Positions 27,732-42,318 of a stretch of DNA of 64,000 nucleotides are shown here, in pieces (positions within the stretch are counted from its first letter, which is position 1; each line of letters starts with the position of its first letter). The translations under genes and the position numbers were made by a program. Source of the DNA: Desulfatiglandales bacterium (GTDB lineage: Bacteria > Desulfobacterota > DSM-4660 > Desulfatiglandales > Desulfatiglandaceae); NCBI GenBank assembly GCA_963666345.1, contig OY762721.1:384001-448000 (forward strand), in the 5' to 3' direction. Under the pieces are notes generated by a model, which worked only from the letters and a program-made list of their open reading frames with translations, had not been told where the DNA came from and searched no databases.

Positions 27732-29249
27732 ATGCTCACAGTGGAAACAATCCGTAAGATACGATTAGCTGTTCTCAGAGATGGCAAATCCATACGTCAG
27801 ACAGCGAAGGATCTGCGCCTTAGCAAAAATACAGTAAAAAAGGCGATAAGGAGCGGAGAAACATCTTTTCAGTACGAACGAAGCAACCAGCCAAGACCCA
27901 AGCTGGGGCCGTTTATAGACATGCTGAAAGGCTTTCTGGAAGAAGACGAGAAACTGCCCAAAAAACTGCGCAGGACAGCCCAGATACTTTTTGAAGAGCT
28001 GCAACTCAACGGCTACGAAGGTGGCTATGACAGCGTACGGAGATATGTTCAAAGATGGCGCCAGGATCAAAGGAGCTTGCCAAAGGAGGTATTTATACCT
28101 TTGGTATTTGATCCTGCAGAAGCCTTTCAGTTTGACTGGAGTCATGAGTGGGTAGATCTGGACGGAAGCAGAGTAAAGGCAAAGGTTGCACATATAAGGT
28201 TATGTCACAGCCGCTACTTCCTTTGTATTGCCTACCCCAGAGAAACCCAGGAGATGGTGTTTGATGCCCATATCAGGGCCTTTGAGTTTTTTGGGGGAGT
28301 TTGCCGTAAAGGCATCTATGACAATCTCAAAACAGTGGTTAACAAGATCCTGGGAGGAAGGGAAAGACAGTTCAACAGCCGCTTCAGCCAACTGTGTTCC
28401 CATTATTTATTTGAACCGGTAAGCTGCACCCCTGCTGCAGGTTGGGAAAAGGGTCAGGTGGAAAACCAGGTAGGTGTGGTCAGAAGGAGATTTTTCACTC
28501 CCCGAATCAAGGCCAGGGATTTCACACACCTAAACGAGCTGCTTAGAGAACAATGCATCACCTGGGCAAAGACCCGTAAGCATCCAACAATATCTGATAA
28601 GACGGTTTGGCAGGTCTACAGTGAAGAGAGACCCTATCTGATAAATCTACCACCTCTCTTTGATGGATATGCACAACGTCCAGCCAGGGTTACCCCCAGC
28701 TCACTTGTAACCTATGACCGGAACCGATACAGCGTTAATTGCAGCCAGGTGGGTAAAGCGGTCTATATGAGAGTATATGCCGATCGGATAGTGATAGTAA
28801 ATAACGGTTGTATCGTAGGAGAGCATGATAGGCATTTTGGAAAGAACAAGACTATTTTTAATCCCTGGCATTATGTCCCGGTCCTTGAACGTAAGCCCGG
28901 GGCTCTCCGTAATGGAGCCCCCTTTAAAGACTGGCAACTTCCCGATCCTGTCGAAGGCGTCCTAAATGGGCTTCAAAACCGTTTTTCCGACTGGGACCGT
29001 CAGTTTGTGGCCATTCTAAATGCTGTTCCTTTCTACGGACTTGAGGCTGTAAGTAAAGCCTGTAAGGAGGCCCTAAAGATAAGGGCCGTAAGTAAAGAGG
29101 TGGTTCTCAATCTTTTAAACAGGGATCAGGATCAGGATTGCACGCCTGATTTGGGTATCCCCTCCCATCTGATTCTCAAGCAAGAGCCCATAGCAGACTG
29201 CCGCCGCTATGAACGTTTGGTAAGGGAGGGATACCATGCTGCGCAATGA
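27732..29249 (+). CDS. istA: IS21 transposase
   Basis: N-terminal HTH, QFDW, YDNLKT, EKGQVE DDE motifs. Confidence 0.95.
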
Positions 29250-29967
29250 TATCATGGACCAGATGGAAAAACTAAAGTTGCGGGGTATGCAGTCCATTTA
29301 TGATGAAGTTGTCTCCAATGGACGCAAGAGCCATTCAACGCCTGAAAAGGTAATCCTGGAACTGCTCAAGGCTGAAGCTGCCGAAAGATATATAAGGAGT
29401 ATCCGATATCGTATGGGACAGGCCAGGTTTCCTGTCCTTAAAGATATCGATGGCTTTGATTTTAACGGGGCCTGTGTTGATGAAGCCCAGATTAGGTCTA
29501 TTTATCAGGGTGATTTTATAGCCGAACATATCAACCTGATTTTTGTAGGTGGCACCGGTACGGGCAAAACCCATTTAGCCATAACTATAGCGGCCCAGGC
29601 CATAAGGAATGGCAGGAAGTGCAAGTTTTATAACCTGGTGGATCTGGCAAATGAGCTTGAGCAGGAGAAAATGATTGGATTGGCCGGCAAAATCACAGCA
29701 AGACTACTTCGATTTGATCTTGTGGTCCTCGATGAACTGGGTTATCTGCCTTTTTCCAAAAACGGCAGTCAACTGCTCTTTCATCTTATATCAAAACTCT
29801 ACGAACAGACATCCATAGTAATCACCACCAACTTGACCTTCGGTGAATGGCCCCAAGTCTTTGGAGATAAAAAAATGACTACGGCCATGCTTGATCGGTT
29901 GACTCATCATTGTGAAATTATAGAAACAGGTAACGAAAGCTGGAGAATGAAACACGCAGCTTCATAG
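29236..29967 (+). CDS. istB: IS21 helper ATPase
   Basis: GGTGTGKT Walker A, LDELGY Walker B, ITTN, LDRLTHH. Confidence 0.95.
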
Positions 29968-30576: not shown

Positions 30577-32094
30577 ATGCTCACAGTGGAAACAATCCGT
30601 AAGATACGATTAGCTGTTCTCAGAGATGGCAAATCCATACGTCAGACAGCGAAGGATCTGCGCCTTAGCAAAAATACAGTAAAAAAGGCGATAAGGAGCG
30701 GAGAAACATCTTTTCAGTACGAACGAAGCAACCAGCCGAGACCCAAGCTAGGACCGTTTATAGACATGCTGAAAGGCTTTCTGGAAGAAGATGAGAAACT
30801 GCCCAGAAAACTGCGCAGGACAGCCCAGATACTTTTTGAAGAGCTGCAACTCAACGGCTACGAAGGTGGCTATGACAGCGTAAGGAGATATGTTCAAAGA
30901 TGGCACCAGGATCAAAGGAGCTTGCCAAAGGAGGTATTTATACCTTTGGTATTTGATCCTGCAGAAGCCTTTCAGTTTGACTGGAGTCATGAGTGGGTAG
31001 ATCTGGACGGAAGCAGAGTAAAGGCAAAGGTCGCACATATAAGGTTATGTCACAGCCGCTACTTCCTTTGTATTGCCTACCCCAGAGAGACCCAGGAGAT
31101 GGTGTTTGATGCCCATATCAGGGCCTTTGAGTTTTTTGGAGGAGTTTGCCGTAAAGGCATATATGACAATCTCAAAACAGTGGTTAACAAGATCCTGGGA
31201 GGAAGGGAAAGACAGTTCAACAGCCGCTTCAGCCAACTGTGTTCCCATTATTTATTTGAACCGGTAAGCTGCACCCCTGCTGCAGGCTGGGAAAAGGGTC
31301 AGGTGGAAAACCAGGTAGGTGTGGTCAGAAGGAGATTTTTCACTCCCCGAATCAAGGCCAGGGATTTCACACACCTAAACGAGCTGCTTAGAGAACAATG
31401 CATCACCTGGGCAAAGACCCGTAAGCATCCAACAATATCTGATAAGACGGTTTGGCAGGTCTACAGTGAAGAGAGACCCTATCTGATAAATCTACCACCT
31501 CCCTTTGATGGATATGCACAACGTCCAGCCAGGGTTACCCCCAGCTCACTTGTAACCTATGACCGGAACCGATACAGCGTTAATTGCAGCCAGGTGGGTA
31601 AAGCGGTCTATATGAGAGTATATGCCGATCGGATAGTGATAGTAAATAACGGTTGTATCGTAGGAGAGCATGATAGGCATTTTGGAAAGAACAAGACTAT
31701 TTTTAATCCCTGGCATTATGTCCCGGTCCTTGAACGTAAGCCCGGGGCTCTCCGTAATGGAGCACCCTTTAAAGACTGGCAACTTCCTCATCCTGTGCAA
31801 GGCGTCCTTAATGGGCTTCAAAACCGTTTTTCCGACTGGGACCGTCAGTTTGTGGCCATTCTAAATGCTGTCCCTTTCTACGGACTTGAGGCTGTAAGTA
31901 AAGCCTGTAAGGAGGCCCTAGAGATCAGGGCCGTAAGTAAAGAGGTGGTTCTCAATCTTTTAAACAGGGATCAGGATCAGGATTGCACGCCTGATTTGGG
32001 TATCCCCTCCCATCTGATTCTCAAGCAAGAGCCCATAGCAGACTGCCACCGCTATGAACGTTTGGTAAGGGAGGGATACCATGCTGCGCAATGA
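30577..32094 (+). CDS. istA: IS21 transposase
   Basis: 505 aa, 7 substitutions relative to copy 1. Confidence 0.95.
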
Positions 32095-32812
32095 TATCAT
32101 GGACCATATGGAAAAACTAAAGTTGCGGGGTATGCAGTCCATTTATGATGAAGTTGTCTCCAATGGACGCAAGACCCATTCAACTCCTGAAAAGGTAATC
32201 CTGGAACTGCTCAAGGCTGAAGCTGCCGAAAGATATATAAGGAGTATCCGATATCGTATGGGACAGGCCAGGTTTCCTGTCCTTAAAGATATCGATGGCT
32301 TTGATTTTAACGGGGCCTGTGTTGATGAAGCCCAGATTAGGTCTATTTATCAGGGTGATTTTATAGCCGAACATATCAACCTGATTTTTGTAGGTGGCAC
32401 CGGTACGGGCAAAACCCATTTAGCCATAACTATAGCGGCCCAGGCCATAAGGAATGGCAGGAAGTGCAAGTTTTATAACCTGGTGGATCTGGCAAATGAG
32501 CTTGAGCAGGAAAAAATGATTGGATTGGCCGGCAAAATCACAGCAAGACTACTTCGATTTGATCTTGTGGTCCTCGATGAACTGGGTTATCTGCCTTTTT
32601 CCAAAAACGGCAGTCAACTGCTCTTTCATCTTATATCAAAACTCTACGAACAGACATCCATAGTGATTACCACCAACTTGACCTTCGGTGAATGGCCCCA
32701 AGTCTTTGGAGATAAAAAGATGACTACGGCCATGCTTGATCGATTGACTCATCATTGTGAAATTATAGAAACAGGTAACGAAAGCTGGAGAATGAAACAC
32801 GCAGCTTCATAG
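32081..32812 (+). CDS. istB: IS21 helper ATPase
   Basis: 243 aa, 2 substitutions relative to copy 1. Confidence 0.95.
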
Positions 32813-35172: not shown

Positions 35173-35493
35173 ATGATGAAGAAAATCGAGACCTGTGAGA
35201 AAAACGGTTTTAATGAAGAAAGAATGTCAAATTTTCTGGTGCATGACTCCCCCTACATGAAGGTCTTAAGCTTCAATTTCAGGGGTGGACAGGACCTGCC
35301 GATCCACTCGCATGACATAGACGGGCAGTTGTGCCTGGTTGTAATTGAAGGCAAAGGGCAGTTTCTGGGAAAAGACGGCAGCACTAGTTCCGCAAAGCCT
35401 GGAGACGTTCTCATATCAGATATCAGCGAGCCGCACGGCCTGCGAGCGTCCACCGACATGCGCGTGCTGGTCACGATAGCTCCGCCCATATGA
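35173..35493 (+). CDS. Cupin-domain protein
   Basis: LPIHSH, VIEGKG, GDVLI..PHGL; RBS AAGGAG. Confidence 0.85.
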   Translation: MMKKIETCEKNGFNEERMSNFLVHDSPYMKVLSFNFRGGQDLPIHSHDIDGQLCLVVIEGKGQFLGKDGSTSSAKPGDVLISDISEPHGLRASTDMRVLVTIAPPI

Positions 35494-35529
35494 TTCTTCT
35501 CATAAGGAACCACGGGAGATGAAACGGAT

Positions 35530-35841
35530 CTAAAAGGTAACCACCTTATCCGCCTCCATTGACAGTTCATACAGGTCGTCCATCCACCCGATAGGACATG
35601 AACTCGATCCCACCAGACCGTGGGATTTCATGCAGACGCCTCAGACGTAAAAGTCACCTTCAAATTGATTCATCTGTCCAAGCACATCGAACTGTTCCGT
35701 GCCCGCGGTCTCGAATTTAACCCCTTTTCCGAGCATAAAGACGCTTGTTTCATCACCCTTTTTTACGGCCACATTGGCAAGTCTCATGGCATTGTAGATC
35801 GTCTCGCCGTCATCCGTTGAAATGATAAAAAGGACGTTCAT
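35530..35841 (-). CDS. DsrE-family selenoprotein (103 aa, Sec67, UxxC)
   Basis: The TGA at 35643-35641 sits at the first Cys position of the DsrE CxxC. The frame continues GVCMKSHGLVGSSSCPIGWMDDLYELSMEADKVVTF to TAG, completing the fold. A SECIS-like hairpin follows the TGA. Confidence 0.85.
35597..35640 (-). promoter_or_regulatory. Bacterial SECIS-like hairpin (DsrE gene)
   Basis: catgaa-atcccac-GGTCTG-gtgggat-cgag-ttcatg; the G-led apical loop begins 22 nt after the TGA. Confidence 0.75.
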
Positions 35842-36112
35842 AGGGTTTCCCCTGTTTCAGAAAATTCCTGTCTTTTCAATTTTTAATTTTCTCCATTTCC
35901 TACTGTCCCTGTCGCTCTACCCTCCGGAAGTTCCACCCGACCCTGTACCTGGTTTTTCCCTCCTCTTTCGGCTTTTTTTTCATCCTCGGAGTCATCTTGT
36001 CTATCTTGATCACGATCGAGCCGGGGATACCCTCCTTTTCCCATGAATGACTCCAGCTGGTCCAGGGTCTCTAAAAACAGCACAGGCGAAGATTCAATGT
36101 TTTCCAGACATG

Positions 36113-39100
36113 CTATTTCTGCATGAGCACCATGTTTACCATGGATTTTTGCCCGGTCCCCGTTGCCTTGATCATTATCTGGGACGCGCCCTTTTTAAGC
36201 TGAATCACTGCGAGAGGCCCTTGGGCCATGGACATCCCTGGCTTCCATCCCTTGGCGCTCAAGGCCTTCTTATAGAAATTGATCACATCTTCAGGGCCTG
36301 CCGGTGCCTCCAGATCGGCCGTACTGTTGGGGCCGAATGTCTTCTCCTTTAACACCTTGGCGCCCGGATAAAGCGGAGCCTCACCGTTTAACAGTTCACC
36401 ACCGCCGGTCTCCTGTTCGGACGTCCCTACTGATGCGCCTTTATCACCGCCAGTTTTGGGTAAGGGAGCAACCTTCGGCTGGGCCACAGGCGCAGGTGCG
36501 GCAGGTTCTTTTTCCACAGGGAACTTTGCATTGACCGTAAGAGTCTTGCCCGATTCCAACTGAATATCCCTGATCTCCCGCACTGACCCCTCCTTTCGGT
36601 CTTCGACCTTGACGTAGTAGACACCGGGAAGAAGTCTGTATTCAGCAGGCCTTCCGTCCGCCCGGGCCCAGCCGTCTCCCATGTACTTGTCATCCTTTTG
36701 CTGGTAGAGCTTGACATAAGCCTTGTAAGACACACCGTTTTTGGTGGCCTTGACATTGAGAACTCCCCCTGCAACAAAGCTTGCAAACCTTTCAACCGTC
36801 TTATCCGGCTTGACCTCCACGTTTTCTATAATGACCTCAGGCCGCTGTTTAACGCTTGTGTCCTGGATCAAGATCTTGTAGATACCCGGCAGAAGTTTGT
36901 ATTCTACTGGACTACCATCTTCCTTTGTCCAGCCGTCTCCCATGTATTTATTGTCTTCCTGACGAAAGACCTTCACGTAGGCCTTCATTGGTGCGTTATC
37001 TTTGATCGCCTTGACATGAAGGATGCCTCCAGCACCAAAGGTTGCAACTCGTTCCACCGTCTGGCCCGGCTTGACCTCCACGTTTTCAATAGTGACAACA
37101 GGACGCTCCGTCACGCTTGTATCCTGAACCTTTACCTTGTAGAGGCCGGGCAGGAACTTGAACTCCGCAGGCGTGCCGTCCTCCTTAGCCCAGCCGTCTC
37201 TCATATACTTGTTGTCTTCCTGACGAAAGACCTTTACATAGGCTTTCATAGGCGCATTTTTCTTTACAGCCTTTACGTGAAGGATGCCCCCCTCACCAAA
37301 GGTTGCAACTCGTTCAACAGTCTCACCCGGTTTTACCTCTACATTTTCAATAGTGACAACAGGACGCTCCGTCACGCTTGTATCCTGAACCTTTACCTTG
37401 TAGAGGCCGGGCAGGAACTTGAACTCCGCAGGCGTGCCGTCCTCCTTAGCCCAGCCGTCTCTCATATACTTGTTGTCTTCCTGACGAAAGACCTTTACAT
37501 AGGCTTTCATAGGCGCATTTTTCTTTACAGCCTTTACGTGAAGGATGCCCCCCTCACCAAAGGTTGCAACTCGTTCAACAGTCTCACCCGGTTTTACCTC
37601 TACATTTTCAATAGTGACAACAGGACGCTCCGTCACGCTTGTATCCTGAACCTTTACCTTGTAGAGGCCGGACAGGAACTTGAACTCCGCAGGCGTGCCG
37701 TCCTCCTTAGCCCAGCCGTCTCTCATATACTTGTTGTCTTCCTGACGAAAGACCTTTACATAGGCTTTCATAGGTGCATTTTTCTTTACAGCCTTTACGT
37801 GAAGGATGCCTTCGGTAGCAAAATTGGCCACGATCTCAGTGGTCCGGCCCTCAACCACTTCCACATCCTTTATATTCACAGTGGGTCTCTGAATGACACT
37901 CGTATCCTGGGCACAAATATCGTACATCCCCGGGGGAAGACGGAAGGCAGCTGGTTTCTCAGTGCTTGTCCATCCTTCCGCGACCCGTTTTTCCCCACCC
38001 TTGGTCAGAACCTGCACGTAGGCCTTGATAGGTTTTTCGTCTTTGATACATGTCACCTTTAAGCTTATCGGCGGTTTTTCCGCCGCCTTTTTCACTACAG
38101 CCTTTGCCGCCATCTGAAAGTCTTTGGCCGTCTTTGCCGTGAAATACTCACCGCCACCTGCCTTGGCCATGCACTCAAGCTGTGCCTTTTCTTCTTCTGT
38201 GACGTCAAATCCGATGACATGCATTACGAAATTTATCCCTGCCTCCTTGAGATCCTTGACCAGGCCGCAGGGGTCCGGATCACAGGTCTCTTTGCCGTCC
38301 GAAACAAGGATAATGGTGGTTTCGTCCTCCATCTGTTTGATACGCTCAGCCGTCATCCGAACCGACCGGGATATCGGGGTCTTTCCTTTGGGGCTCAGAC
38401 CCTGAACTGTCTTTATAAGTTTCTTCTTGTCTATTTTGCCCAGAGGAACCAGTTCTTCCACGTCGTTGCAGTCACCCTTGCGCCTGTGCCCGTAGGCCAC
38501 CAGGCCCACGACGGAATCATCCGGCAGGTCTTTGATGAGACCGCTCATGACCTCCTTGGCAATGGCGATCTTGGCCTTTCCTTCCACCCGCCCCCACATG
38601 GAGCCTGAGGCATCCAGGATAAACATTATATTGCCGGTAGAGGCCGTCTCTGGTGCTGCCTTTTGAGCGGCCTGGGCAGGTCTTGCAGGAGTGGGAGTTG
38701 TTGTTTTTTGAGCCTGAACTGTTTTTACATCTCCGGTCTCGCTCTTACCCTGGCACGCAAACTGCTCGATCTTGAAGACAATCCTGCCAGCTTCTCCTGA
38801 AAGAGAAAGGGTCCAGGGTTCCATTTCAGGCGGTATCTCCCAGGAGCGGTTCTGGTTATTTTTCAGCGCAAAACGGGCCGATTCGATGGCGTTCTTGTTC
38901 TTGTCCTGAACTATCAGGTTTGCCTTTGATATTGTTCCCGCTGGATTGTCCCCGGTGGCCGTGATCACGATACGTCTGTCAGGATCAAGGGATCGCCCTC
39001 TGCCTGAGCCCTTCTTTACCTCGATTATCTCGACCTTCGGCTTTCCCGGCCTCTTCTTCTTGGTAACCGTCGTTTGATGCCCAATGGCCTTTACCTCTTT

Positions 39101-40045
39101 GCTCCCTTCTCCGAACTGCTCCATTTTCAGACGGATCTGCCCGGACATACCGCTTACGGAAAGTGTCCAGGGCTCTTTTTCGGCAGGGATATCCCAGGTT
39201 CTGGTCTGTTCGTTTTTCAGGGTAAAAACCGCGCCTTCAATTTTTTTGTTCCTTTTATCCTGGACGGTCAGGCCCGCCTCGGACAGATCGCCTTTTGGGT
39301 TATCGCCTGTGGCAGTGATAACGATACTGCGATCAGGATCAAGGGAAATTCCCATCGCAGAGGTCTTCTTGATGACCAGGGTCTTCACGCTGGGCTTCCC
39401 TGATACGTATTTTTCCCGGGACGAGGTTCCGGAGGTAGGTTGGGGGGGACCTGCCGCCATTTCCAGTTTTGTAAAGCCTGCCGGGATCTTGAAAAGATCT
39501 GATTTTACAGTCCCTTCCTTGATATCTTTAAGCTCCATGACAGCGTTTTTGTTCAGTCCGAAGCGTTCCTCCCGGATGAGATGATTGAGCTTTTTTGCGA
39601 TCCAGACCTTGGAGGCAGGTTTTGATTTTCCCGCCTCAATGTACATCACTGTTTTGCATTCATAACCGTTAACAGTTTCGACCGGGCCGGGCTTTTCCGT
39701 CATCCCCTTGCGGGTCATGGTCCATCCGACCAGAGGATTTGTCATCATGGTCTTTTTGATATCGGCAATTTCAACGTATTTTTTCATCTGGGGATTAAGT
39801 CCCCATGTCACACCGGTATCACGGTTTACAATGCTCGGATAGGGAGGCACGTTCATCGGCCCCTTTATCTTCTGGAGTCGGTACATACGGTCTTTGACAT
39901 AGAGCTTATAGAGATATTCTCCTCCCGGTCCGGTTATAGCCATATCGGCCGTGAACTGGACTGCCTGTGCATGCGTAACTGAAAAGAACATGATTGAAAC
40001 GACAAAAAATGCAACCAGGAAACCGAGAAGTCTTTTCTGTACCAT
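36113..40045 (-). CDS. Large exported VWA-domain protein with an N-terminal DUF4412-like domain and beta-rich tandem repeats
   Basis: Signal peptide; MIDAS DASGS, GKTPI, LVSDG; six ~87-aa repeats; two further ~110-aa repeats before the VWA domain. Confidence 0.85.
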   Translation of the reverse strand: MVQKRLLGFLVAFFVVSIMFFSVTHAQAVQFTADMAITGPGGEYLYKLYVKDRMYRLQKIKGPMNVPPYPSIVNRDTGVTWGLNPQMKKYVEIADIKKTMMTNPLVGWTMTRKGMTEKPGPVETVNGYECKTVMYIEAGKSKPASKVWIAKKLNHLIREERFGLNKNAVMELKDIKEGTVKSDLFKIPAGFTKLEMAAGPPQPTSGTSSREKYVSGKPSVKTLVIKKTSAMGISLDPDRSIVITATGDNPKGDLSEAGLTVQDKRNKKIEGAVFTLKNEQTRTWDIPAEKEPWTLSVSGMSGQIRLKMEQFGEGSKEVKAIGHQTTVTKKKRPGKPKVEIIEVKKGSGRGRSLDPDRRIVITATGDNPAGTISKANLIVQDKNKNAIESARFALKNNQNRSWEIPPEMEPWTLSLSGEAGRIVFKIEQFACQGKSETGDVKTVQAQKTTTPTPARPAQAAQKAAPETASTGNIMFILDASGSMWGRVEGKAKIAIAKEVMSGLIKDLPDDSVVGLVAYGHRRKGDCNDVEELVPLGKIDKKKLIKTVQGLSPKGKTPISRSVRMTAERIKQMEDETTIILVSDGKETCDPDPCGLVKDLKEAGINFVMHVIGFDVTEEEKAQLECMAKAGGGEYFTAKTAKDFQMAAKAVVKKAAEKPPISLKVTCIKDEKPIKAYVQVLTKGGEKRVAEGWTSTEKPAAFRLPPGMYDICAQDTSVIQRPTVNIKDVEVVEGRTTEIVANFATEGILHVKAVKKNAPMKAYVKVFRQEDNKYMRDGWAKEDGTPAEFKFLSGLYKVKVQDTSVTERPVVTIENVEVKPGETVERVATFGEGGILHVKAVKKNAPMKAYVKVFRQEDNKYMRDGWAKEDGTPAEFKFLPGLYKVKVQDTSVTERPVVTIENVEVKPGETVERVATFGEGGILHVKAVKKNAPMKAYVKVFRQEDNKYMRDGWAKEDGTPAEFKFLPGLYKVKVQDTSVTERPVVTIENVEVKPGQTVERVATFGAGGILHVKAIKDNAPMKAYVKVFRQEDNKYMGDGWTKEDGSPVEYKLLPGIYKILIQDTSVKQRPEVIIENVEVKPDKTVERFASFVAGGVLNVKATKNGVSYKAYVKLYQQKDDKYMGDGWARADGRPAEYRLLPGVYYVKVEDRKEGSVREIRDIQLESGKTLTVNAKFPVEKEPAAPAPVAQPKVAPLPKTGGDKGASVGTSEQETGGGELLNGEAPLYPGAKVLKEKTFGPNSTADLEAPAGPEDVINFYKKALSAKGWKPGMSMAQGPLAVIQLKKGASQIMIKATGTGQKSMVNMVLMQK
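37030..37810 (-). repeat. Three near-identical 261-bp intragenic tandem repeats (plus three diverged copies, ~36510-38070)
   Basis: aggttgcaactcgtt recurs at 37039, 37300 and 37561 (period 261 bp = 87 aa). Confidence 0.95.
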
Positions 40046-40639
40046 TATTTCCTCCTATAGCCGTTGGTATTTCACATTTCCTATAAGCAGTGGACCCGCG
40101 CTATCGCTGAAAAGGGTTATGAAAGCCCCTCACCCCTACCCTTCTTCACAAATGGGGATAAGGGGTGAAGGTATGAGGGGTTATCGATTAAAAAAAACAG
40201 CCCTTGACATATGGCAAGCAAAAAAACCGCAGGCGGGTATTTCATTTCTCCGTACATATAGAATAGTTCGATTTGTTATATAATAAGGACTGGTTCATAA
40301 AAAGGCATTAAAAATGATCCGTAGTACAAGTTAGCGACCATGATAATGCAATAAATTTAATCATTTTTCAATAAACTCTTTTCCTTATAAATAATTTATT
40401 TAATAAAACAAACCATGGAAACATATACCGATTTAATACATTTGAGTTCATACTAAAAACTCATTCAGGACAAACAGATTTTCCAGTTAGAGACATCACT
40501 AATAAAAATGCCCGAACCGATGAAAATACTATCGGCACGGGCCATTTAAAGAATCTTATCTATTTGATATAACTATTTAAATGCTGTTACTCTAGAAGAC
40601 ACCGTCGTTAACGCTGAGAAAGCCGTTCTAAATTTTTTC

Positions 40640-41047
40640 TTACTTATAACAAGCCTTTTTCCACGCCTTTATTCCACCCAAAAGGGCCTTTACATTATTG
40701 TAGCCTTTATTGATATACTCTCCTGCCAGACCGGCAGATGTGGCCTCATTGGCTCACTTGCAATAAAAGATTATCTCGCTGTCCGTTGAAAGCCGTGGAA
40801 GCCTTTCTTCCAGTTCAGAGCGAAATATCGCGCCTTCAAGGATCTTTCCCTCACAAGCCTTGTCATCATATGCACAGACAAAAAGCGCCTCGCCCGAAAC
40901 GACCTTCCGGTGCGCCTCCTCAACTCCTATTCGCTCAACCACAAGACCTTTCTTGGTCTGACTTGTCCAACCTGTTGATGAAGCAATAAACAGGGCAAAC
41001 ATTACGGAAACCACCAACACCACGGTGAAACCATAATTTTTTTTCAT
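40640..41047 (-). CDS. Exported rhodanese-like selenoprotein (135 aa, C-K-U, Sec98)
   Basis: AGGAGG RBS, ATG 41047, signal peptide. IIFYCK-TGA(40756-40754) continues ANEATSAGLAGEYINKGYNNVKALLGGIKAWKKACYK to TAA, the canonical rhodanese C-terminal signature. Confidence 0.85.
40722..40753 (-). promoter_or_regulatory. Bacterial SECIS-like hairpin (rhodanese gene)
   Basis: ctgcc-GGTCT-ggcag; the loop begins 22 nt after the TGA, the same offset and loop as in the DsrE gene. Confidence 0.75.
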
Positions 41048-41112
41048 ATATTGACCTCCTTTCCTGATATGACATATCCTGGGTTTATGATTCTCGAAAA
41101 GGAGCCCTGCCT

Positions 41113-42318
41113 TTGTCACCTAAACAAGACACGAACAACTGCCCCGCCCCGGAACCGCTCAGAAATCATCTGGGTGTTGTCATATTTCTGACCCTCCTTT
41201 TTCTGATATCATTTCTTGCCAGATTTATATTTTCTCCCCTCATGCCCTCTATTGAAAAGGACCTGGGCGTCACACACGCGCAGGCAGGCTCGCTTTTCAT
41301 GGTCCTTTCGATCGGGTTCCTGACAGCTCAGCTGAGCTCCGGTTTTCTTACATCCCGGATACTTCACAGGGGCTCAATAATTACATCAGCCATTGCCATG
41401 GGGTTTTTCCTGATTCTCTTTTCTTTCCTCAGCTCCCTGAACCAGATTCGCCTGGTCATGGTGCTGCTCGGCATGGCCGCCGGGCTTCATCTTCCTTCCG
41501 CGGTAGCCACGATAACGGCCATGATAGATCGTCAGGACTGGGGCAAGGCCCTCGGGGTTCATCAAACCGCCCCAAGCATTGCCCTGGTAATGGGACCGCT
41601 TCTGGTTGTGGCACTGCCGCTTTCCTGGAGGACACTCCTTCTGCTGATAGGGATTTTATCCATTGCAGGAGGGATATCCTTTTTTATCTTTAACGGATCA
41701 GGAAGATTCCCCGGCCAGCAGCCCAGGCCTGCCAACGTGAAAGCGCTCCTTTCCTTGAAATCGTTCTGGATAATGGTCGCCCTGTTTTCCATGGGTATCG
41801 CTTCAAGTGCAGGGCTTTACACAATGATCCCGCTGTATCTTGCCTCGGAAAAGGGTTTTGATCCTGACACGGCCAATTTTCTTCTCGGTCTGTCCAGGGT
41901 TTCAGGTCTTTTCATAGTCATTGTTGCGGGATGGGTTGTCGACAGAATCGGTGAAAAAAAGACATTGTCAGGGGTCCTTTTTTTCTCCGGCCTGGGAACC
42001 ATCCTCCTTGGCCTTGCTTCCTCAAAATGGATCGTTCCGGCGCTTTTTCTTCAGCCTCTTATTGCATCCGGTTTTTTCCCTCCCGGATTCGCGGCCCTTT
42101 CACGGATAGTCTCACCAAGTTTCAGAAGTCTTGCTACTTCGCTTGTAGTTTCGATCGGCTTTCTTTTTGGAGGTGGTATGGTGCCTATGTTCCTTGGGTT
42201 GATGGGTGAAAAGGGGAACTTCGGTCTCGGGATTGTGCTACTGGGAGCTTTTACCGGCTTGATCCCGGTACTTTCCCTTTTTCTCAGGTTAAAACAGATG
42301 GAGGAACCCGGCTGCTGA
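41113..42318 (+). CDS. MFS transporter
   Basis: About 12 hydrophobic segments; GWVVDRIGEKK MFS loop motif. Confidence 0.9.
   Translation: MSPKQDTNNCPAPEPLRNHLGVVIFLTLLFLISFLARFIFSPLMPSIEKDLGVTHAQAGSLFMVLSIGFLTAQLSSGFLTSRILHRGSIITSAIAMGFFLILFSFLSSLNQIRLVMVLLGMAAGLHLPSAVATITAMIDRQDWGKALGVHQTAPSIALVMGPLLVVALPLSWRTLLLLIGILSIAGGISFFIFNGSGRFPGQQPRPANVKALLSLKSFWIMVALFSMGIASSAGLYTMIPLYLASEKGFDPDTANFLLGLSRVSGLFIVIVAGWVVDRIGEKKTLSGVLFFSGLGTILLGLASSKWIVPALFLQPLIASGFFPPGFAALSRIVSPSFRSLATSLVVSIGFLFGGGMVPMFLGLMGEKGNFGLGIVLLGAFTGLIPVLSLFLRLKQMEEPGC

Follow-up and report, generated by a model that had tools for sequence, protein, structure and literature searches.

Two genes in a stretch of DNA from a Desulfatiglandales bacterium (assembly GCA_963666345.1, contig OY762721.1, positions 384,001 to 448,000 of the forward strand; the whole 64,000-nucleotide stretch is referred to here as the window) are each interrupted by an in-frame TGA codon, and each TGA is followed at the same distance by the same octamer, CGGTCTGG. 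One gene encodes a DsrE-like protein and the other, unrelated to it, a rhodanese-like protein. A preliminary description of the locus took both to be hidden selenoprotein genes, and proposed that the shared loop and spacing, with stems free to vary, constitute the selenocysteine insertion sequence (SECIS) code of this organism, so that the motif could be used to mine its selenoproteome. The question raised by the locus is whether such a code exists, or whether the two genes follow rules already described for bacteria at large. We hold with high confidence that both are ordinary selenoprotein genes, each with a canonical fdhF-type SelB loop at a typical spacing, and that no code peculiar to the organism is involved.

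The sequence elements are all where they were claimed to be. In both genes exactly 20 nucleotides lie between the TGA and the octamer, which starts at nucleotide +21; codons +8 and +9 are GGT CTG and read Gly-Leu, and the stems differ in sequence. The octamer had been described as the apical loop of a hairpin, and a hairpin with the proposed stems is indeed present in each gene, but the outer bases of the octamer belong to the stem: its first C and its last G or Gs form closing pairs, and the loops proper are GGUCUG in the DsrE-like gene and GGUCU in the rhodanese-like gene. The spacing from UGA to loop is 21 nucleotides in both. Both hairpins are present in the minimum-free-energy folds, with core energies of -10.9 kcal/mol for the DsrE-like gene and -7.7 kcal/mol for the rhodanese-like gene. 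The two TGAs are very likely selenocysteine (Sec) codons and the hairpins SelB-type SECIS elements, as conservation in relatives and the gene content of the genome, described below, both indicate. In the mechanism we favor, SelB loaded with Sec-tRNA(Sec) would recognize the hairpin that follows the UGA immediately on its 3' side, and the bound complex would bring about insertion of Sec at that codon, the shared GGUCU at 21 nucleotides reflecting a common SelB/ribosome geometry together with an fdhF-type loop. We infer from the sequences that SelB binding and Sec insertion take place at both genes.

Against a cut-off of 22.7, the DsrE-like protein scores 39.4 bits with the Pfam DsrE domain (PF02635), in an alignment that takes in residues 1-103 and runs through the TGA; the C-terminal portion of YedF is matched too, though weakly. 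The residues around the predicted Sec67 are FYV-U-GVCMK, in which U67-G-V-C70 forms a UxxC motif. Of 209 genomes of the class, 70 have a match to the gene. Among the 86 places listed, the 63 best each contain one TGA (in one case with a TAG in addition), are 72-99% identical to the window gene, and span query residues 1-103, 2-103 or 4-103, which is nearly full length; the TGA is kept across many genera. The 36 codons past the TGA are conserved, and within the first 20 of them 29 relatives show 190 synonymous and 40 non-synonymous codon differences from the window gene. The Sec67 column is Cys in all three stop-free homologues (33-41% identity), where it appears as C-G-x-C, and one database protein that is 75% identical also has Cys in this column. 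The proposal that the TGA stands at a redox Cys position thus holds for this gene, and Sec here and Cys in the homologues make up a Sec/Cys pair of the classic kind, with UxxC as the motif. It shares its domain with the DsrE-like selenoproteins (PF02635, UxxC) that a 2026 review includes in its table of selenoprotein families (PMC13188914), with U-G-V-C here and Cys in the stop-free homologues; a DsrE-like selenoprotein was listed as early as 2006, in a study that also noted selenoprotein-rich Deltaproteobacteria (PMC1794560). The window gene lacks a conserved neighborhood, in that no neighbor is conserved in more than nine of 30 loci compared for synteny; an ArsR-like neighbor, identified by eye, is found in nine of them. 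The protein is likely to act as a sulfur/selenium relay or redox protein.

The rhodanese-like gene has an AGGAGG sequence upstream of its ATG and encodes a protein with a hydrophobic N-terminus that matches Pfam Rhodanese at 31.1 bits (cut-off 22.2). Its active-site loop reads FYCK-U-ANEATSAGLAGEYINK, giving a CxU motif, C96-K-U98. The gene is matched in 43 of the 209 genomes, and 24 loci, comprising the window gene and 23 relatives, contain the pattern [LIVF][FYL][YF]-C-x-TGA. The claim of a redox Cys position fails for this second gene: four stop-free rhodanese homologues have the ordinary loop YCK[S/T]GGRAS, and because their conserved Cys aligns with C96, the predicted Sec98 lies two residues past the catalytic Cys and not at it, in a column that is Ser or Thr in all four. 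The protein is likely an exported one of the sulfurtransferase type, with Sec in the active-site loop beside the catalytic Cys.

The hairpins are conserved along with the TGAs, although the two families differ in what is kept. GGTCT at 21 nucleotides past the TGA (N21) is present in all 30 DsrE-like loci examined, the window gene included. In all 30 the Gly at codon 8 is encoded by GGT and that at codon 11 by GGA, whereas the choice is free at Gly codons 1 and 18, for which three and four synonymous codons respectively are used; this shows a constraint at the level of RNA. The sixth loop base is free, the codon being CTG in 16 loci, CTT in 11, CTC in two and CTA in one. The rhodanese hairpin lies at the same columns in all 24 TGA-bearing loci, again counting the window gene, and contains compensatory changes. 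There are nine loop sequences among these loci (CGTGT in nine; AGGTT in four; GGTCT, AGTTT, GGTCA and GGGAC in two each; GGTCG, GGTAC and GGGCT in one each), loop position 2 being G in every one. Across 23 distinct rows of the alignment 89.1% of cells pair, as compared with 27.5-52.9% when the partner is slid, and at pair 20-34 there are 11 distinct rows with C-G and 10 with G-C. Covariation scores 0.287, as compared with at most 0.104 when the partner is slid and 0.142 in shuffles; none of 500 shuffles reached the observed score, in a control that is inflated by relatedness. Retention of this kind shows that the motif is not a chance occurrence in these two genes. An Rfam scan of positions 35300-41300 of the window at E values up to 10 returned no SECIS family, and gave three chance-level matches to unrelated families.

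The bacterial SECIS consensus model is reportedly that of bSECISearch, by Zhang and Gladyshev, from 2005. As set out in the 2026 review, the model calls for a loop of 3-9 nucleotides, a stem of 4-16 bp, a spacing of 16-37 nucleotides, a minimum free energy no higher than -7.5 kcal/mol, and a G within the first two bases of the loop, with G or U as the usual next base (PMC13188914); the same spacing range is repeated elsewhere (PMC10778597). Both window hairpins agree with every element of this model, the rhodanese-like one lying just inside the energy limit. We see no difference of substance between the window elements and the model in the form given by the review, and the proposed code amounts to a narrow special case of it. 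The closest individual likeness is to Escherichia coli fdhF, in which a hairpin directly 3' of UGA-140 has GGUCU(G) at its top, in frame and read as Gly-Leu. In strain K-12 the arrangement is TGA-N18-GGTCTG, so that the spacing is 18 nucleotides there and 21 in the window genes, and the stems are unrelated. The two fdhA genes of the present genome share the N18 spacing of E. coli fdhF. For its function the E. coli element requires a bulged U as well as certain bases of the loop.

The 4.16-Mb genome contains the complete Sec machinery: selA (608.9 bits, cut-off 268), selB (393.8 bits, cut-off 242), selD (372 bits, cut-off 125, with one in-frame TGA), and selC as a tRNA-SeC with anticodon tca at genome positions 216718-216815. 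Other Sec sites were sought independently of any motif by scoring both flanks of every TGA with a dicodon log-likelihood trained on 1,791 long open reading frames (ORFs). This gave 1,881 TGA sites, reduced to 245 by a six-frame test and then inspected by eye, with 20 candidates sent to Pfam and seven to NCBIfam. The 18 supported Sec sites that resulted are a lower bound and not a census, given that a site had to have positive coding scores and 15 or more codons on either side. They comprise two FdhA, five HdrA-like proteins, SelD, two peroxiredoxins (Prx-AhpC and Prx-Bcp), an MvhD/FlpD protein, a PrdB-like protein, an SNase-like protein with a CxxU motif, the two window genes, an HdrD/HmcF-like Fe-S protein (UGH), a DUF1573/OS_HP2 protein (NF041425, 104.5 bits, cut-off 100) and a dual-CXXC small protein (NF041197, 35.7 bits, below the cut-off of 40). 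DUF1573 (UGC), Fe-S oxidoreductase-like (UGH) and dual CXXC small proteins all appear in the table of the review mentioned above (PMC13188914).

Loops and spacings differ across most of these sites. The DsrE-like, rhodanese-like and SNase-like genes have GGUCU(G) at 21 nucleotides, the two fdhA genes have GGUCU at 18, the five hdrA-like genes have AGGU or AGGC at 22, and selD has GGA at 20, so that the expectation that fdhA, selD and hdrA would use the window motif is not borne out. Elsewhere the loop is GGA at 23 nucleotides in the MvhD and HdrD-like genes, GGUC at 17 in Prx-AhpC, GGUCG at 22 in the dual-CXXC gene, and GUG at 18 in the PrdB-like gene; no convincing hairpin was found at the Prx-Bcp and DUF1573 sites.

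Several observations weigh against reading the two genes as unremarkable members of catalogued families with a generic SECIS. GGUCU is the commonest single loop, found at five of the 18 sites, and some preference of this SelB for it may exist. The 56-nucleotide fold of the rhodanese-like gene is no more stable than its shuffles (z = -0.41). Four of the 18 Sec sites (Prx-Bcp, MvhD, DUF1573/OS_HP2 and, at a threshold of -6 kcal/mol, SNase-like) have no clear hairpin under a general rule that asks for a loop of 3-6 nucleotides starting 17-23 nucleotides past the triplet, with G among the first two loop bases, a stem of 4 bp or more and an energy of -6 kcal/mol or lower, and for this reason the general SECIS model is also incomplete here. 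Lastly, the best NCBIfam match of the rhodanese-like protein is NF041203, 'rhodanese-related (seleno)protein', at 55.6 bits over residues 63-134 only, which is below the curated cut-off of 115. Since the equivalog threshold is not reached, it is the Pfam domain and the CxU motif that support assignment of the family. The protein is a CxU rhodanese-like selenoprotein that resembles form 3 (NF041203, CxU, in the table of PMC13188914) and that we do not file as an equivalog member: it has the C-x-U of the NF041203 'rhodanese_LYCAU' family in the active-site loop (FYCKU here), but differs in its sub-threshold score, partial match and hydrophobic N-terminal extension.

A variant of the idea of a special motif can also be put forward, although we consider it improbable. 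Three unrelated small proteins of this genome have GGUCU at N21, one of them an SNase-fold protein with Sec in an inserted CxxU loop, and GGUCU at exactly +21 might be a high-affinity SECIS subclass on which lineage-restricted or recent selenoproteins of the class converge. If this were true, a new selenoprotein could arise where a UGA was gained seven codons ahead of a hairpin with GGU-CUG (Gly-Leu) in frame.

The code as originally proposed, in which CGGTCTGG or GGTCT exactly 21 nucleotides past the UGA, with free stems, would specify Sec in this organism and could be mined for, we regard as very unlikely. The sharing of the N21 loop by three unrelated Sec genes, and the frequency of GGUCU among the supported sites, are what speaks for it. 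The loop at N21 is nevertheless absent from 15 of the 18 sites, including both fdhA genes, the five hdrA-like genes and selD; the same pentamer occurs in E. coli fdhF; and bases six and eight of the octamer vary among orthologues (GGTCTG, GGTCTT, GGTCTC and GGTCTA). Nor are the matches in excess of chance. On both strands of the genome TGA-N21-GGTCT has 154 matches against a mean of 171 (standard deviation 31) over offsets 0-60, TGA-N20-CGGTCT, the pattern put forward for a genome-wide scan, has 27 against a mean of 44, and TGA-N20-CGGTCTGG has four, where the mean is 3.8. When the loop must also be enclosed by a stem of 4 bp or more, 10 of the 154 remain, as compared with 5-13 at the eight other TGA offsets tested (N15-N27) and 0-11 after other triplets. 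Both flanks are coding in frame at only three of these 10, namely the two window genes and the SNase-like gene with its TGA at genome position +40447. The preliminary description had named known Sec genes without the motif, and a frequency no higher than chance, as findings that would count against its code, and both are what we find. As a tool for mining, the motif is neither sensitive nor specific, recovering three of at least 18 Sec sites with three of 154 matches real. The general hairpin rule fires at 14 of the 18 Sec sites, and it fires at 1,710 of 165,383 TGA triplets (1.03%), the same rate as at TAA, TAG and TGG (0.91-1.02%); structure alone therefore cannot mine the selenoproteome.

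That the TGAs are true stops or mark decayed genes, giving products of 66 and 97 residues with hairpins that are coincidental or serve, for example, transcript stability, seems to us extremely unlikely. Public annotation is on its side, in that, among the 120 best relatives listed for the DsrE-like protein, 86 are exactly 66 residues long and end at the TGA, NCBI 'DsrE family protein' entries among them. Against it stand the Pfam alignment through the TGA, the predominance of synonymous change in the codons past it, retention of the TGA across many genera, the Cys homologues, and the full Sec machinery. The prediction that ORF callers truncate such genes is correct for the DsrE-like protein, as the 66-residue entries show, and the truncation concerns annotation, not biology. 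In six full-length DsrE-like entries that we inspected, the Sec column holds Trp in five and Cys in one; the Trp suggests gene calls made on short contigs with a code that reads TGA as Trp.

We give almost no credence to a SECIS cassette copied between the two genes by recombination, since, for all that eight identical bases stand at an identical offset in genes 5 kb apart on the same strand with two IS21-family copies nearby, the identity ends at the octamer and the stems differ, each family keeps a hairpin of its own, at fixed codons, in many genomes, and the rhodanese loop is GGTCT in just two of 24 loci while stem and position are kept. The shared offset is itself not improbable, because an in-frame GGU-CUG limits the offsets to multiples of three and the hairpin starts 17-23 nucleotides past the UGA at 16 of the 18 sites.

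We note some further features of the genome that emerged from the search for Sec sites. The PrdB-like selenoprotein (genome 2736891-2737697, minus strand; TIGR04483, 125 bits, below the cut-off of 300) has a UPKC motif, and its GGUCU at 21 nucleotides past the UGA is part of a stem of 8 bp, in which it makes up the 3' arm and GUG is the loop, so that the sequence motif fits and the structure differs. The SNase (thermonuclease)-fold protein, outside the window at genome 40261-40818 on the plus strand, has its in-frame TGA in a CLPU motif with a GGUCU loop at N21; the TGA is found in five other genomes, inside an inserted xxCxxU segment that is missing from stop-free homologues. No NCBIfam selenoprotein model matched this protein, and the family was not found in the main text of the review under nuclease, SNase or PF00565 (PMC13188914). 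The sequence around the TGA is identical near genome 102737 and 1282929 (plus strand), with the same flanking open-frame lengths of 428 and 273 codons, and this is apparently a duplicated gene pair or a repeated element. Four TGAs, given by genome position, were rejected as Sec codons, being true stops or lacking support: 4064143, at a junction between gcvPB and lipB; 3683778, which falls after a Flavoprotein domain; 2401288, which falls after an HSP20 domain; and 815833, which belongs to no family and failed the six-frame coding test. Possible TGAs in four unconfirmed candidates (MerB-like, LDCC-like, a small membrane protein and an adenylate cyclase) all lack GGTCT at N21, and no candidate Sec site was found in an octaheme cytochrome. 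A search for fossil SECIS elements past Cys codons (TGC or TGT, N18 or N21, GGTCT hairpin) gave 26 matches, nearly all in non-coding frames and none convincing.

The two selenoprotein genes do not form an operon, being separated by a gene for a large protein (Table 1). An MFS transporter gene lies nearby, as do the two IS21-type copies, which are in tandem. By eye, a hairpin followed by a T-run is seen past the rhodanese-like gene near 40505-40545.

Table 1. Features of the locus, in positions of the 64,000-nucleotide window (U, predicted Sec).
Feature	Position	Strand	Details
DsrE-like gene, predicted selenoprotein	35841..35530	(-)	103 residues plus stop (35532-35530), TGA read as U
In-frame TGA, predicted Sec67	35643-35641	(-)	Translation with TGA read as U; Cys in this column in stop-free homologues
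Octamer CGGTCTGG, DsrE-like gene	35620-35613	(-)
Predicted SECIS core hairpin, DsrE-like gene	35607..35626	(-)	7-bp stem ATCCCAC (35626-35620)/GTGGGAT (35613-35607); loop GGUCUG 35619-35614
Rhodanese-like gene, predicted selenoprotein	41047..40643	(-)	135 residues, TGA read as U; stop TAA 40642-40640
In-frame TGA, predicted Sec98	40756-40754	(-)	Two residues past the rhodanese catalytic Cys
Octamer CGGTCTGG, rhodanese-like gene	40733-40726	(-)
Predicted SECIS core hairpin, rhodanese-like gene	40722..40738	(-)	6-bp stem UCUGCC (40738-40733)/GGCAGG (40727-40722), including a U-G pair; loop GGUCU 40732-40728
Gene for 1,310-residue protein	40045..36113	(-)	VWA, DUF4412 and DUF4406 matches; between the two selenoprotein genes
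IS21-type copy, first	27732-29967	(+)	505-residue integrase-core/Mu-transposase-C protein, then 243-residue IstB-like ATPase
IS21-type copy, second	30577-32812	(+)	505-residue integrase-core/Mu-transposase-C protein, then 243-residue IstB-like ATPase

The locus has little bearing on the mechanism of Sec insertion, as what it offers is a known bacterial SECIS rule re-derived from two genes of catalogued families. A short sequence motif cannot mine the selenoproteome of this organism, and filters for coding and homology are indispensable because so few of the motif matches are real and the general hairpin rule fires at one in a hundred TGAs. The practical value lies in annotation: the DsrE-like selenoprotein is mostly stored in a truncated form or with Trp in the place of Sec.

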